A DNA stretch of 64,000 bases. Source: Acidobacteriota bacterium. Its GTDB lineage: Bacteria; Acidobacteriota; UBA890; WLXD01. Under the pieces are notes generated by a model. The model was not told the DNA's origin and ran no database searches. It saw only the letters and a program-made list of their open reading frames with translations. This document shows positions 1,452 to 6,976 of the stretch, one piece after another. The stretch covers positions 3,904,001-3,968,000 of the forward strand of contig CBDFKD010000002.1 in NCBI GenBank assembly GCA_965248695.1, read 5' to 3'. Position 1 is the stretch's first letter. Every line of letters begins with the position of its first letter. Made by a program: the position numbers and the translations under genes.

Positions 1452-2639
1452 ATGAACGACCAGGACCGTGCCACCCGAGCCGACCCGCAGCACCTCGAAC
1501 CTGATATCAAGGTGATGGAATGGGGGTTCGCGCGCACGCCGTTCTTCCCGTGCACTTCCACCCCGGACACCGTCTACAGCGTCTACAGCGGCCGTCTCGC
1601 CATCGAGGCGATGGGCGACGATCCGGTAGCCAACTACTGGAAGCTACGGCGCGAGGCGGTGCTGTACGACGTGCCGGAGCACCCGATCGAGATTTCCGGG
1701 CCCGATGCAGAACGCCTGCTGAACCGGGTGTTCGTGCGCGATATTTCCAAGCTGAGGCCGGGACGCGCTAGCTACGGCATCGCCTGTTACCCCGATGGCG
1801 GCATCATGATGGACGGCGTGCTCATGCGACTCGCCGAGGATCGGTTCTGGTATGTCCTGGCGAACGGCGAGTTCTTCAGCTGGGTGATGGCACTTGGCCT
1901 CGAGATGGACGTGACCGTCAGCGACCCGGACTCGTGGGTGCTGCAGGTGCAGGGCCCGCGATCGCTCGAGGTGCTGGATACTGCGTGCGACGGTGGCGCG
2001 CCGGATCCATTCAAGTTCTTCGCCGTCACCGAGTGCACCATGGGCGGACAGCCGCTTTGGCTATCGCGCACTGGCTGGACGGGTGAGCTCGGCTGGGAGG
2101 TGTACACGATCGAGCCCGACGTCGATGGGCCGGCTTTGTGGAACCACATCCTCGAGGCCGGCAAGTCGTTCGACATGGTCGGTACGGCAATGGACTCGAT
2201 GGAGAGCCGCCGCATCGAGGCCGGCATTCTCAGCAACGGCAACGACATGACCCCGGCGCACAACCCGTTCCAGGCCGGCCTCGGCAAGTTCGTCGATATG
2301 GATAAGGAAGACTTCATCGGCAAGCAGGCGCTCGAGACTGCCGATCGAGGCTTGTTGCTCTATGGCATCAAGAGCTTGCAGGCAGCACCCTCCGGGGAGA
2401 TGGCGGTCGAGGGTCGGCGGGTCGGTCGGGTAATGGTCGGTGCCTGGTCGCCCTATCTGCAGCACGGCATAGGCTTCGCGATGTTCGACGAGCCGGGGGA
2501 ATGGCCTGGCACACAGGTCGAGGTGCAGGATCCGCAGGGCGCTTTCCAGGTCGGGGAGATCGTCATGCTGCCGTTCTATGACGCCGACAAGCAGATCCCG
2601 CGCGGTCTCGACCGGAGTATTCCGGAGGTACCGAGCTAG
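1452..2639 (+). CDS. GcvT-family folate-dependent aminomethyltransferase/demethylase (DmdA-like)
   Basis: IEISGPDA..LL, LQVQGPRS, SRTGWTGELGWE, RRIEAG, DKEDFIGK and LPFYD motifs. RBS GAGGA upstream. Confidence 0.85.
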   Translation: MNDQDRATRADPQHLEPDIKVMEWGFARTPFFPCTSTPDTVYSVYSGRLAIEAMGDDPVANYWKLRREAVLYDVPEHPIEISGPDAERLLNRVFVRDISKLRPGRASYGIACYPDGGIMMDGVLMRLAEDRFWYVLANGEFFSWVMALGLEMDVTVSDPDSWVLQVQGPRSLEVLDTACDGGAPDPFKFFAVTECTMGGQPLWLSRTGWTGELGWEVYTIEPDVDGPALWNHILEAGKSFDMVGTAMDSMESRRIEAGILSNGNDMTPAHNPFQAGLGKFVDMDKEDFIGKQALETADRGLLLYGIKSLQAAPSGEMAVEGRRVGRVMVGAWSPYLQHGIGFAMFDEPGEWPGTQVEVQDPQGAFQVGEIVMLPFYDADKQIPRGLDRSIPEVPS

Positions 2640-4144
2640 TCGGGTTCCACCCCCTCGTCCAGCAGTGCCATCAGGGGTTTCTTGACGGCGAACATCGCCA
2701 CCGCAACGAGTCCGCAGCCGACGGCGATCCCGCCGAACACCGCCAGTTCCCCGATCGATTGCGCCAACGCTCCCACCTGACCCGAGAGCCAGATCCCGAT
2801 CCCGCCGAGAAGCAGCCAGAGACCCATCATCGTGCCTGCCAGCCGCTCCGGTGCCTCGGCGCTGATGAACCCCAGCCCGATCGGAATGACCGCCAGCTGC
2901 CCGACGGTGACGATCCAGTAGTAGATCAGGGGCCAGAACAGATGCGTCTGCGTGCCAGGATTCAGTGCATGCTGAGACGCGGCGAAGGCCATACAGACGA
3001 AAGCGAGCGCGGTCATCAGCATTCCGATGGCCATCTTGCTCGGCGCCGAAACAGCTCCCCGTCGGTTCGAGGCCAGCTTCCACGTCCAGATCATGACCGG
3101 CCCCAACAGGATCACGAACAGCGACTGGGCGGAGTGGATCCACAGGGTCGGAACCTCGAACCCCCCAACCGTGCGGTCGGTCTTGTTTTCGACATAGAGG
3201 CTGAACAAGCCGCCCCATTGATCGAAGGCCACGAGGAAGAACAGGTAGCACATCGACAGCACCGCGATCGCGAGCACGCGATTCCGCTCAGGAGGCGTGA
3301 GCGCGAGCGAAAACGACTTTCGTTCGGCGGTCTCCGTCAAGGCTGGCCCCCCGTTCGACTCGAACGAAGCAACCAGCCGTAGCAACGCGGCGAACGCGGC
3401 AGCGGCCATGAAGGCCGTCGACAGCAGGGCCGCTCGCCAGCCAAATCGGGTCAAGAGGCCGCCGGCGATGAGCGCGCCGACGATGAACCCGAGGTTGAGC
3501 GCCATGAAAAACAGCGTGTACCCGGTTTCTCGTCGCGCCGGCTCGTCGGCGTACAGTACGCCGACGAGTGCGTACAGGCTGGGCATCAGCAGGCTATAGC
3601 TCCAGGCGAACAGCGCGATGCTCAGATAGAACGCGACGGTTGTGAGTCGGTAGGCCCGCCGAACCGCAAGCCGCAACGTCTCGTTCGCTTCGGCGGCGCC
3701 CAGCACCCGCTCCAGTCGTGCGTCCTCCTCCGAGCCCAGGCTGATTCTTCCAAGCGATACGTCGGCCTCGATGAGCACCTCCCGAACCGGGGCGTCGTAT
3801 ACGAAGCCCACAAGCTCGGGAATCGAGCTCGCGGCGCTGAACAACAGGATGGCGATCGTTCCGCCGGCCAGTCCCAGAATCGCGGCCCGTCGTTTACCGG
3901 TGAAGACGTCCGCGACCCAGCCGCCGATCATCGGCGCCAGGTGCACCACACCGCCAAAAAGGCCGTAGAGGCGGATCGCTTCGGCGCCCGACCAACCGAA
4001 ACCGTAGTCAAGCGGCGGGGTGGTCAGGAACAGGACGAGGTGTCCGATGATGCCGGCGTAGGCCGCGACGTACCACAGAGCGATGAACGACAAGACGAAG
4101 AGGACGCGCGGGTGGCCATAGAAAACCGTCTTGTCAGCGGTCAC
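2636..4144 (-). CDS. Proton-dependent oligopeptide transporter (POT/PTR, MFS)
   Basis: FYGHPR N-terminus, GGWVAD..GKRRA, GYTLFFMALNLG, DQWGG..SLY, APERLAGTMMG; many TM helices. Confidence 0.9.
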   Translation of the reverse strand: MTADKTVFYGHPRVLFVLSFIALWYVAAYAGIIGHLVLFLTTPPLDYGFGWSGAEAIRLYGLFGGVVHLAPMIGGWVADVFTGKRRAAILGLAGGTIAILLFSAASSIPELVGFVYDAPVREVLIEADVSLGRISLGSEEDARLERVLGAAEANETLRLAVRRAYRLTTVAFYLSIALFAWSYSLLMPSLYALVGVLYADEPARRETGYTLFFMALNLGFIVGALIAGGLLTRFGWRAALLSTAFMAAAAFAALLRLVASFESNGGPALTETAERKSFSLALTPPERNRVLAIAVLSMCYLFFLVAFDQWGGLFSLYVENKTDRTVGGFEVPTLWIHSAQSLFVILLGPVMIWTWKLASNRRGAVSAPSKMAIGMLMTALAFVCMAFAASQHALNPGTQTHLFWPLIYYWIVTVGQLAVIPIGLGFISAEAPERLAGTMMGLWLLLGGIGIWLSGQVGALAQSIGELAVFGGIAVGCGLVAVAMFAVKKPLMALLDEGVEPD

Positions 4145-5061
4145 TAACCGGAGGCCTGACCCGTTGACCCCGGCGTCTCACCGACGCACACGGCGCACGA
4201 CGGGTCGTTGGACTCGGCGAGAGCGCGATCTTCCTCGCTCTGGTACTGCGGGGTGTCGTGGCGTGGCAACCGCTGGTCGGCGCCGCGCTCGGCGGTTTCC
4301 TTCCACGCCTCGTCGTCGGTCCACTTGAACGGCAGCGTGACCGTGCCCGGTTCGCTCAGCGCCGTCAGGCCGGCGAGCGCGCTGGTGAGGATCTCGCGTT
4401 GCAGCTCCGGCTCACCCGGTTTTCCGGCGGTGTGCCCGAGTGGGTAGTCGAGGAAGGCGATGCGTGGCGGCCTGGTGGCCTGGATGATGTCGAGCGCGCT
4501 CGCCATGCACAGCGTGGAGATCCCGGCCGCCTCGATCTCCCGTGCGATCAGTCCGACGGACTGATGGCAAACCGGTCAGACGGGCACCAGCAGCGCCACG
4601 TCGACCTGGTTGGCGACGAGGCGCCGGGCCAGTTCGGGCGCGACCTCATCGCGTGCCCTTCGTGACGAGTAGATGCCGCCCATGAAGGTGTACGCGTTGT
4701 CGGCCAGCGCGCCGACAACGCCGTCCTCCACCAACCCTCGTAGCGTATCGATCGGGAAGACCACGTTCGGATCACGGCGCGCCGGGTCGAGATCGTAGGA
4801 AAAGTGTGTGGCGCGGAGATCCGCCGTGTCGACGTCCGTCGGAATCGTGCGGAACGAGACGTCGTCCTTGTAGTGGAAGGCGCGCTGGCCGGCAATGTAG
4901 ACGCCGCCGGAGGCGATCAATCCGAGGCGGCACTCCGACAGCGGCTTCTCGAGCGGTTGCCAGGGTGGAGGGTCTTCGACGCGGGTCCACTCGTAGATGC
5001 CGTAGCCGAGGGCAGCGTATTTCTCCCCGATGCGTGTTATGTACTCGATCGGCTCACTCAT
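4144..5061 (-). CDS. Selenoprotein of the glycine/sarcosine/betaine/D-proline reductase component B family (GrdB/PrdB-like), Sec at in-frame UGA 4576-4578
   Basis: The two track ORFs (4576..5325 and 4144..4506) are in the same frame. Read-through gives LLVPV-U-PVCHQSVGLIAREIEAAGISTLCM..RPPR..YPLGH. Upstream motifs KPLSECRLGLIASGG and DPNVVFPID..L are typical of the family. 305 aa from ATG 5061. Confidence 0.85.
4540..4578 (-). promoter_or_regulatory. Putative bacterial SECIS element
   Basis: Directly 3' of the UGA: CCG GUU UGC C AUCAGUCC-GUC-GGACUGAU C GCA CGG. Perfect 8-bp upper stem, G-starting loop 18 nt after the UGA, extendable lower stem. Confidence 0.7.
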
Positions 5062-5149
5062 CCGCGCGGCTCCAAGGCGGAGGACCGAAGCGTCACATGA
5101 AACGCGCCGCAAACCCCGCCGGTCGACGACTGCCCAGCGAGCGTATCGC

Positions 5150-6976
5150 ATGAAGCGCGTGAGAGGGGCAGTGTTGTTTGTCGCCACATTGGTGTTGTGC
5201 CCGAGCCACGGCCTGGCATCGTCGCCGGCGGTGACCGCGAGATCATCGGCACAGCGACACTCCGTGGTGGTCGCCAGGAACGTCGAGGCGGCGATGCGGG
5301 ATGGCACCGTACTGCGCGCCGACATCTACCGTCCCGATGCGCCGGGACGATTCCCGGCGCTGTTGCGCCGTACGCCGTACTCCAAGAACAGCGACGGATC
5401 GGCAGCGCGCTTTCGGCGGTTGAGTACGCACGGTTATGTCGTTGTGGTGCAGGATACCCGGGGTCGCTACGCCTCGGACGGAGTCGCGGTGCCGCACGAC
5501 GAGGCGACGGATGGTTACGACAGCATCGAATGGGTGGCGGCGTTGCCGTACGTCGACGGCAAGGTCGGCATGTACGGTGGCAGCTACCTGGCGACGACCC
5601 AGCTGATGGCCGCATCGCTGGCGCCGCCACACCTGACCGCGATCGCGCCGAGCTCGTCGTACTCGAGCCGCCACGACATGGTCTTTCAGGGTGGCGCCTT
5701 CTACCTGTCGGACGGGATGTACTGGAACCTGGGGCAAGCGGCGGACGTCCGTCGCCGGGCGGCCGGCGCGTCGTTCGAGGATCGCGACGGTCCGATCGGA
5801 TTGACCGGCGAAGAGCGTCGCAAGGTGCGCGAGGAGCTCCTCTGGCAGGTACCGCTGGCGTCGATGGGGGCGCTGGGCATCAAGGATCTCGCGCCCGGCT
5901 ATTTCCAGATGCTCGCTCACCCGAGCTACGACACGTTCTGGGAAACCTACGACATCGCCCGTCGCCATGGCAGCTTCGAGACTCCGGCCCTGCATGTTAC
6001 CGGCTGGTACGACACCCTGCTGCGCGGGACGCTGGAGAACTTCAGTGGGTTGCGTGCCAACGCCCGGACTCTGCGGGCCCGGGACGGTCAGCGGCTCGTG
6101 GTTGGCCCCTGGACCCATTCGGGGCCGACAATCGAGAGCACCAGCATCGGCGAGGTCGAGTTCGGTCCGGACGCCGGGATCGACTATGAGCAGCTGCTGC
6201 TGCGCTGGTACGACCATTGGCTCCGCGACGGTGATGCATCGGTTGTGGACGCGGCGCCGGTACGCATCTTCGTGATGGGGACCAATCGCTGGCGCGACGA
6301 AGCCGAATGGCCGCTGTCGCGGGCACGACCAGCGCGCTACTATCTTCACAGCGGCGGCGATGCGGCCGAGCGCGCTGATGACGGAGTGTTGAGCACCGAA
6401 CCCCCGGCTGAGGAGCCTCCGGATCGGTATGTCTACGATCCCTCCGATCCGGTGCCCACCGGTGCCGCCGGCGGATATTCGCGCGCGCCGGCGGACGCCT
6501 CGGCGATCGAGACGCGACCCGACGTGCTCGTATACACCAGCGCCGCGCTCGAACAGGATCTCGAGGTGACCGGCTATATCGAGCTTGTGCTCTGGATATC
6601 GTCATCGGCGCCGGATACCGACTTCACTGGCAAGCTCATCGACGTGGCCCCCGATGGGACCGCGCGGACGCTCACCGACGGTATCGCCCGGGCTCGTTAT
6701 CGCGATGGCAAGACGAGCCCGGAGCTGCTCTCGCCGGGCGTACCGGCGCGGCTGGCTATCGACCTGCTTGCCACCAGCAACGTTTTTCTCCGCGGCCACC
6801 GGATCCGGCTGGAGATCTCCAGCAGCAACTTTCCGCGATTCGATCGCAACCCCAATACCGGTGCTCCGTTTGGCACCGACGGCGAGTTGCGAAGCGCGAC
6901 GCAGAGCGTTTTTCACGATAGACAGCGAGCGTCCTACCTGCAGCTGCCGGTAGTGCCTAGCGACGAGTCCGGCTAG
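5150..6976 (+). CDS. CocE/NonD family serine hydrolase (peptidase S15 / PepX_C), secreted
   Basis: MRDGTVLRADIYRP, RTPY, QDTRGRYASDG, GGSYLA nucleophile motif, GWYD, GPWTH, SSNFPRFDRNPNTG; signal peptide. Confidence 0.9.
   Translation: MKRVRGAVLFVATLVLCPSHGLASSPAVTARSSAQRHSVVVARNVEAAMRDGTVLRADIYRPDAPGRFPALLRRTPYSKNSDGSAARFRRLSTHGYVVVVQDTRGRYASDGVAVPHDEATDGYDSIEWVAALPYVDGKVGMYGGSYLATTQLMAASLAPPHLTAIAPSSSYSSRHDMVFQGGAFYLSDGMYWNLGQAADVRRRAAGASFEDRDGPIGLTGEERRKVREELLWQVPLASMGALGIKDLAPGYFQMLAHPSYDTFWETYDIARRHGSFETPALHVTGWYDTLLRGTLENFSGLRANARTLRARDGQRLVVGPWTHSGPTIESTSIGEVEFGPDAGIDYEQLLLRWYDHWLRDGDASVVDAAPVRIFVMGTNRWRDEAEWPLSRARPARYYLHSGGDAAERADDGVLSTEPPAEEPPDRYVYDPSDPVPTGAAGGYSRAPADASAIETRPDVLVYTSAALEQDLEVTGYIELVLWISSSAPDTDFTGKLIDVAPDGTARTLTDGIARARYRDGKTSPELLSPGVPARLAIDLLATSNVFLRGHRIRLEISSSNFPRFDRNPNTGAPFGTDGELRSATQSVFHDRQRASYLQLPVVPSDESG

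Follow-up and report, generated by a model that had tools for sequence, protein, structure and literature searches.

A single reading frame interrupted by one UGA codon

The window analyzed here is a 64,000-nucleotide stretch of an Acidobacteriota genome (assembly GCA_965248695.1, contig CBDFKD010000002.1, positions 3,904,001 to 3,968,000 of the forward strand), and our subject is a predicted selenoprotein gene within it whose product resembles PrdB, the B subunit of D-proline reductase. The gene occupies the minus strand from 5061 to 4144 as one 305-codon frame, interrupted solely by a TGA at 4578-4576 that corresponds to residue 162. With U standing for selenocysteine (Sec), the surroundings of this residue read DVALLVPV-U-PVCHQSVGLIAREIE, and the motif itself reads LLVPV-U-PVCHQ, i.e., U162-P-V-C165. 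The initial annotation of this DNA had joined two apparent open reading frames (ORFs) into one frame broken by the TGA, with the residues LLVPV leading up to it, and had anticipated that standard gene callers would split the gene. Translation bears out the single frame and assigns it to the minus strand, and plain ORF calling does divide the gene into two pieces, 4576..5325 (−) and 4144..4506 (−); the same division is apparent in the public databases, as described below. A stem with a GUC loop, also described there as lying just past the UGA, is present as well, and its helix covaries among relatives.

We place the start at ATG 5061 because orthologs share that first residue and the sequences upstream of it are unrelated between species. 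Three congeneric orthologs begin at this position, aligning from residue 1 or 2, and one of them does so with GTG. These orthologs are 81–94% identical to the PrdB-like protein and align with its residues 1-305, 2-299 and 2-295. The gene is the sole member of the GRDB family in its genome. We also considered the C-terminal CAVC motif of the protein as a functional element and rejected it, as the closest ortholog has CAVG instead.

Conservation of the UGA and the machinery for selenocysteine

Matches above the curated cut-offs identify selA (522 bits), selB (330 bits) and selD (319 bits) in the genome that contains the window, an assembly of 5.89 Mb on 2 contigs that is 96% complete. The genome also encodes a tRNA-SeC bearing the anticodon TCA. 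The selD match (G000:C2:1557914-1558828, locus L011; 311 model positions) sits in a 794-codon open frame, which raises the possibility that SelD is joined to a further domain.

In a panel of 41 related genomes that extends from the same genus out to the phylum, a PrdB-like homolog is found in 19, and exactly one in-frame TGA is present in all 25 matches. The selA gene is present in 37 of the 41 genomes, including 18 of the 19 with a TGA-containing homolog; the exception is a genome that is 69% complete. Both complete genomes in the panel that are without selA are also without a PrdB-like homolog.

A collection holding one genome per species contains at least 560 stretches that encode a PrdB-like relative, and we analyzed the best 80 loci. 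The codon at the Sec column of these loci is TGA in 78 and TGC in two. One contig (L115), assigned to a metagenome-assembled genome of the archaeon Nitrosopumilus, carries a bacterial-type PrdB-like gene with both the TGA and a hairpin inside the coding sequence; it is probably a binning error and not an archaeal gene.

From a protein database we took the best 120 matches, 27 of which cover 90–96% of the query and were all aligned. The Sec column of these full-length homologs holds Cys in 25 and Thr in two, and never Trp, while P163, C165, H166 and Q167 are invariant among them. The two homologs with Thr (P0002 and P0008) still keep the peptide HQSVGL[IM], whose codons form the hairpin stem in the Sec forms, and they may have lost Sec recently or be inactive. 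The other 93 of the 120 best matches are N-terminal fragments that cover 51–63% of the query, most of them 167–220 residues in length and one of 443, and are consistent with gene calls that end at the UGA. The 443-residue entry (P0081) contains α/β-hydrolase domains (PF12697, PF00561 and PF12146) in addition to an N-terminal PrdB-like half that ends at the UGA site, and it may be a natural hydrolase fusion.

Contigs from public sequencing runs over the stretch show no variant at 4576-4578, in a comparison of contigs, not raw reads, that rare variants at these positions could escape. The contigs identical to the window probably come from its source sample; those of a second study belong to a diverged relative. 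The common variants nearby, at 4570 and 4573, are synonymous changes in third codon positions. We judge from the sequences as a whole that the gene with UGA162 is a real selenoprotein gene.

A covarying hairpin downstream of the UGA

The selenocysteine insertion sequence (SECIS) of bacteria, as in fdhF of E. coli and in the bSECIS model of Zhang and Gladyshev, is a stem-loop within the coding sequence shortly 3′ of the UGA. In the PrdB-like gene, an 8-bp hairpin opens 10 nt past the UGA (spacer 4575-4566) and folds alone at −10.3 kcal/mol. Of the 25 phylum matches, 20 were aligned around the UGA. In this alignment 90.6% of the cells in the helix are paired, with compensatory changes in six of the eight pairs. 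The covariation score of the helix was matched by none of 500 shuffles, and registers slid along the same alignment pair in only 17–38% of cells. Some of the compensatory changes in the stem alter the encoded residues, for example from Ser-Val-Gly to Val-Val-Asp, with pairing retained.

The same helix is found in the wider set of loci. Among the 78 Sec loci of the best 80, all eight pairs form in register in 74 and seven of eight in the other four. In the two Cys loci, the helix is down to four and five of its eight pairs, and the peptide HQSVGL is changed to HQATAI or HQAAAI. Across the 78 Sec loci, synonymous-site entropy at the stem codons is 0.24 for Gln+5 (CAG in 96%), 0 for Ser+6 (TCC in 100%), 0.49 for Gly+8 (GGA in 91%) and 0 for Leu+9 (CTG in 95%). 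The loop codon of Val+7 varies, with an entropy of 1.22, as do the flanking four-fold codons outside the stem, at 1.2–1.9. We read this pattern as RNA-level selection on the stem codons of the hairpin that is confined to the stem.

Metagenome contigs of many other organisms map to this region at ≥85% identity, and they do so at ~4541-4592 only, where the summed depth is in the hundreds versus ~4–8 elsewhere. The module formed by the UGA and the hairpin is the most DNA-conserved part of the PrdB-like gene across taxa.

The hairpin is similar to the fdhF-type SECIS in being a stem-loop inside the coding sequence that begins ~10–11 nt after the UGA, and in having a loop that opens with G-U in no fewer than 18 of the 20 aligned relatives (conservation of at least 90% at both G31 and T32). 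It differs from bacterial SECIS elements in that the loop is tiny, at 3 nt, or 5 nt with the closing pair open, and in that no bulged U was identified. We infer that SelB would bind this hairpin.

Family assignment and predicted structure

The protein matches the Pfam family GRDB (PF07355) with 41.2 bits against a cut-off of 22; the match places residues 39-159 on model positions 221-345 of 347 and ends three residues before the Sec. The best NCBIfam match is TIGR04483, the PrdB equivalog, in which residues 28-248 align with model positions 14-235 of 238 at 172.2 bits and do not reach the equivalog cut-off of 300 bits. The models for GrdB, GrdF and GrdH score below every cut-off, at 56–63 bits, and match with their C-terminal half only (~218-427 of 431-435 positions), with 56.1 bits against 602.2 for TIGR01917 and 56.7 bits against 65.45 for TIGR01918, in matches that span only model positions ~261-425. 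The assignment to a GrdB/PrdB-like family in the initial annotation is therefore upheld at the level of the family, with PF07355 above threshold and TIGR04483 matched over its full length, but does not extend to a bona fide PrdB or GrdB, since the scores fall below the equivalog cut-offs and neither PrdA/GrdE nor GrdA was found.

The placement of Sec in a UxxC motif, proposed at the same time, holds up. Sec162 shares its column with the UGA of another gene of the reductase B type (TST-U-GTCSRC), found in a relative next to a Gly_reductase-family gene, and the Sec162 column is therefore the catalytic column of the family. In this phylum relative (L041/L124; G039:C20 ~80.5-82.5 kb), the two adjoining genes, one of GrdB type with the motif U-G-T-C-S-R-C and one of the Gly_reductase (GrdE/PrdA) family, have the appearance of a genuine operon of the glycine-reductase type.

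An AlphaFold2 model calculated from a 28-sequence alignment has a predicted local distance difference test (pLDDT) of 88.3 and a predicted template modeling score (pTM) of 0.90. The model sets Sec162 at the junction of a β-strand (155-159) with a helix (163-178), inside an α/β domain of Rossmann-like type, and Cys165 follows one turn later. A query of the ESM Atlas with a natural Cys-form homolog returned GRDB-family clusters only.

Genomic neighborhood

The gene is flanked by a transporter gene downstream and a divergent hydrolase gene upstream, and a convergent gene for a GcvT-like protein lies beyond the transporter (Table 1).

Table 1. Positions of the PrdB-like selenoprotein gene, its elements and its neighbors in the window.
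Feature	Position	Strand	Basis
PrdB-like selenoprotein coding sequence (predicted), complete, 305 residues; ATG 5061-5059, TAG 4146-4144	4144..5061	−	Single TGA; ortholog alignment
UGA codon, predicted Sec residue 162	4576..4578	−	TGA/Cys conservation at the column; no variant in contigs
Cys165 codon, putative resolving cysteine of U-P-V-C	4567..4569	−	C165 column invariant in the homolog alignment
SECIS-type hairpin: 5′ arm AUCAGUCC 4565-4558, loop GUC 4557-4555, 3′ arm GGACUGAU 4554-4547	4547..4565	−	Covariation; synonymous suppression
POT/PTR2-family peptide transporter, downstream, GTG start	2636..4144	−	PF00854, PF07690
S15-family (X-Pro dipeptidyl-peptidase / CocE-NonD type) hydrolase, divergent	5150..6976	+	PF02129, PF08530
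GcvT-like aminomethyltransferase, convergent	1452..2639	+	PF01571, PF08669

The GTG start of the POT gene overlaps the TAG stop of the selenoprotein gene by one base, and the two genes are therefore probably co-transcribed. The probable start of the S15 hydrolase, at 5150, gives a hydrophobic, signal-peptide-like N terminus, within an ORF that opens at 5030. All four species of the genus have the S15 gene next to the selenoprotein gene, and three of them have the POT gene downstream. In the fourth species (comparison L026/L044), there is no POT gene and the GcvT-like gene directly adjoins the selenoprotein gene; the POT transporter between the selenoprotein and GcvT-like genes is a recent gain or loss.

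Outside the genus, the neighborhood is variable. A tblastn search with seven window neighbors against the best 80 loci gave matches in no locus but that of the closest relative, apart from a single weak one to an amidohydrolase. The best match in the one-genome-per-species collection is 82% identical and shares its flanks with the window. De novo clustering of the 708 flanking ORFs of the best 80 loci yielded no neighbor conserved across the family, and no prd or grd gene is found among its 26 largest clusters. The largest real neighbor cluster, a luciferase-like monooxygenase, is present at 11 of the 80 loci, and the remainder reflect gene order shared by related genomes. Two large clusters, neither with a Pfam match, overlap the gene itself and were rejected as shadow ORFs, and one more cluster was set aside as the gene's own halves.

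We also searched the 1.5-kb flanks of shorter paralogs at 15 phylum loci, where no peroxiredoxin or glutaredoxin neighbor appeared among 37 composition-filtered ORFs (of 216 raw), a filter that may have dropped small genes. At one locus (L028; G014:C128), a shorter TGA-containing PrdB-like paralog has as its flanking genes an M24 peptidase of the creatinase/prolidase type and an amino-acid permease. The peptide or proline flavor of the two unrelated contexts, S15/POT and M24/permease, is a weak hint.

Alternative interpretations of the codon and of the protein

We consider it very probable that 5061..4144 on the minus strand is one gene and that it encodes a 305-residue selenoprotein from a stand-alone, PrdB-like branch of the GRDB superfamily, as opposed to the B subunit of a canonical reductase. 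Were the TGA a true stop, the locus would hold either a 161-residue N-terminal protein followed by a second protein from ATG 4506, or a pseudogene. The two separate ORF calls, the many N-terminal fragments of ~167–173 residues in databases and the use of TGA as a normal stop in this genome are in line with such an arrangement. However, the 24 codons that lead from the TGA to the next ATG are conserved in frame and include the four invariant residues P163, C165, H166 and Q167, and the Cys-form homologs are continuous proteins. The recurrence of the same TGA in 78 of the 80 best loci, across many phyla, is not what a pseudogene would show. The genome has the machinery for Sec and the gene a covarying hairpin, and we regard a true stop as highly improbable. 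We give equally little credence to the TGA being read in some other way, whether through a reassigned code, near-cognate read-through with Trp or Cys, or a sequencing error for TGC or TGG. Nothing specific speaks for these options, apart from the comparison having been made with contigs instead of raw reads. TGA is an ordinary stop in the window, where it terminates 13 of the 27 long frames with high G+C content at third codon positions (GC3), and the code is therefore not reassigned. The homologs show Cys and never Trp at the Sec column, the contigs from the two studies are free of variants at the codon, and the same TGA is present in three congeneric species, with a tRNA-Sec of anticodon TCA encoded in the genome.

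The predicted product is very probably not the B subunit of a canonical reductase for D-proline or glycine, because the genome yielded neither a pyruvoyl-subunit gene (PrdA/GrdE family) nor a GrdA gene. The profile of the former family, PF09338 (Gly_reductase), has no match in the genome, which at 96% completeness does not prove absence. Of the 19 related genomes that carry a PrdB-like gene, 18 likewise gave no match. Across the 41 relatives the profile matched once, beside a GrdB-type gene, and this match serves as a positive control. A genuine B subunit of D-proline reductase (or of glycine, sarcosine or betaine reductase), with a pyruvoyl subunit that is encoded elsewhere or is too divergent to detect, would fit several features of the gene: TIGR04483 is the best NCBIfam match and extends from end to end; the selenoproteome catalogs label the family 'proline reductase' (PMC1088965, PMC2398784); the gene is flanked in the genus by an S15 'X-Pro dipeptidyl-peptidase'-family hydrolase and a POT transporter; and one relative's paralog lies between the M24 peptidase and the permease. 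Even so, we find this explanation very unlikely. The 172 bits are far under the 300-bit equivalog cut-off, the GrdB-type models are below their cut-offs as well, and PF09338 was found neither in the genome nor in nearly all relatives with a homolog, in a search that did work on a GrdB-type operon. GrdA was not found in the genome either, in a search that had no positive control, and prd and grd genes are not among the 26 largest neighbor clusters of the best 80 loci. In C. difficile, D-proline reductase needs both PrdA and PrdB and is inactive as the U151C variant, and it is the selenocysteine of PrdB that attacks D-proline held on the pyruvoyl group of PrdA (PMC11229817).

A number of observations weigh against the assignment to a stand-alone selenoprotein or limit its reach. 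Homologs P0002 and P0008 carry Thr at the Sec column, and a redox-active residue at this position is therefore not universal. Sec incorporation and expression are predictions from the sequence, and the chemistry outlined below is an analogy. The hairpin is not significant in the single sequence, where a 76-nt stretch has a z-score of −1.05 and 28 of 200 shuffles fold as well or better; the case for it therefore rests on the comparison with relatives. An Rfam scan of 4100-5100 with E values up to 10 returned no SECIS family and two chance-level matches. Searches of the PDB with the family profile (E up to 1) gave no sequence relative, a Foldseek comparison with the PDB gave no match at E ≤ 0.001, and a wide VIA-align search reached a best Z of 8.1, with generic Rossmann-like, LacI-type and short-chain dehydrogenase/reductase (SDR) folds within background. 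The absence of GrdA (PF04723) matches from the genome is paralleled by an absence from every control genome. Finally, neighbors of the X-Pro-peptidase family and of peptide or amino-acid transporter type could point to a proline-linked role.

Comparison with known systems

"Proline reductase PrdB" (pfam07355, UxxC) is a family in the catalogs of Zhang, Fomenko and Gladyshev from 2005 (PMC1088965) and of Zhang and Gladyshev from 2008 (PMC2398784). In the Sargasso Sea data PrdB ranks third in abundance among selenoprotein families, with 42 Sec genes (PMC1088965), and 235 Sec versus 110 Cys sequences of PrdB are counted in the Global Ocean Sampling (GOS) data (PMC2398784). A "proline reductase" is also listed in the selenoproteomes of Anaeromyxobacter and Geobacter (PMC1794560), and recent reviews retain the D-proline reductase label (PMC9312934, PMC13188914). 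The PrdB-like gene shares with these catalog entries the Pfam family, the UxxC motif with Sec and an abundance outside Stickland fermenters, as well as the preponderance of the Sec form over the Cys form, here 78:2 in the best 80 loci. At the level of these family descriptions, it would probably belong to the same branch. Unlike the naming in the catalogs, a D-proline reductase label is doubtful for this gene, for which PrdA was not found.

Despite homology over the whole length of PrdB from Clostridioides difficile and Clostridium sticklandii (TIGR04483; Sec151), along with a shared UxxC motif and a SECIS within the coding sequence just past the UGA, the protein differs from PrdB in several respects. 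From the model offsets, Sec162 is probably equivalent to U151 of C. difficile. The protein has an extra ~27 residues at the N terminus and a C-terminal extension of ~55 residues that are absent from PrdB, and in the extension region W247, W253, R267, D278 and A282 are invariant within the stand-alone branch. In addition, no PrdA was found, there is no prd operon, and the genomic context is variable. GrdB, GrdF and GrdH (TIGR01917, TIGR01918) belong to the same superfamily, and the Sec column is common to the relative's GrdB-type gene. The ~430-residue architecture of GrdB, however, is matched only in its C-terminal half, no GrdA or GrdE was found, and the motif is UxxC in lieu of the UxxCxxC of the relative's GrdB-type gene. 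Our literature searches found no paper that treats the stand-alone PrdB-like branch as its own family, and the papers found under 'PrdB-like' concern Synergistota fluoroacetate metabolism only.

Proposed mechanism and implications

By the established bacterial mechanism, with the ribosome positioned at the UGA, SelB-GTP carrying Sec-tRNA(Sec) would bind the hairpin and insert Sec. If the chemistry is analogous to that of PrdB and GrdB, Sec162 would attack an electrophilic carbon or heteroatom of the substrate, and Cys165 would then resolve the adduct, giving a selenenylsulfide that would be re-reduced by a thiol system, for example thioredoxin. We tentatively suggest, at well under even odds, that members of the stand-alone PrdB-like branch are self-sufficient selenoenzymes, working without a pyruvoyl partner in an undescribed reductive cleavage, possibly on proline-containing di- or tripeptides or on another imported amino compound. 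The idea of a peptide substrate comes, weakly, from the POT and S15 genes that flank the gene in the genus and from the M24 peptidase and permease that flank the relative's paralog.

The gene adds one more member to a PrdB-like branch that is already known and is regularly mis-annotated, in a family that has been catalogued since 2005. For annotation, the locus should be entered as one 305-codon selenoprotein gene, where most public entries (93 of the 120 best matches) stop at the UGA. It also adds a further clean example of the widespread "PrdB" selenoproteins of non-fermenting bacteria in which no PrdA is found and which therefore would not be canonical D-proline reductases. The UGA–hairpin module, conserved in DNA across phyla, could act as a probe for the family. 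If the branch does consist of self-sufficient enzymes, then 'proline reductase' would for two decades have been the wrong name for a selenoprotein family that is among the most abundant in the environment.

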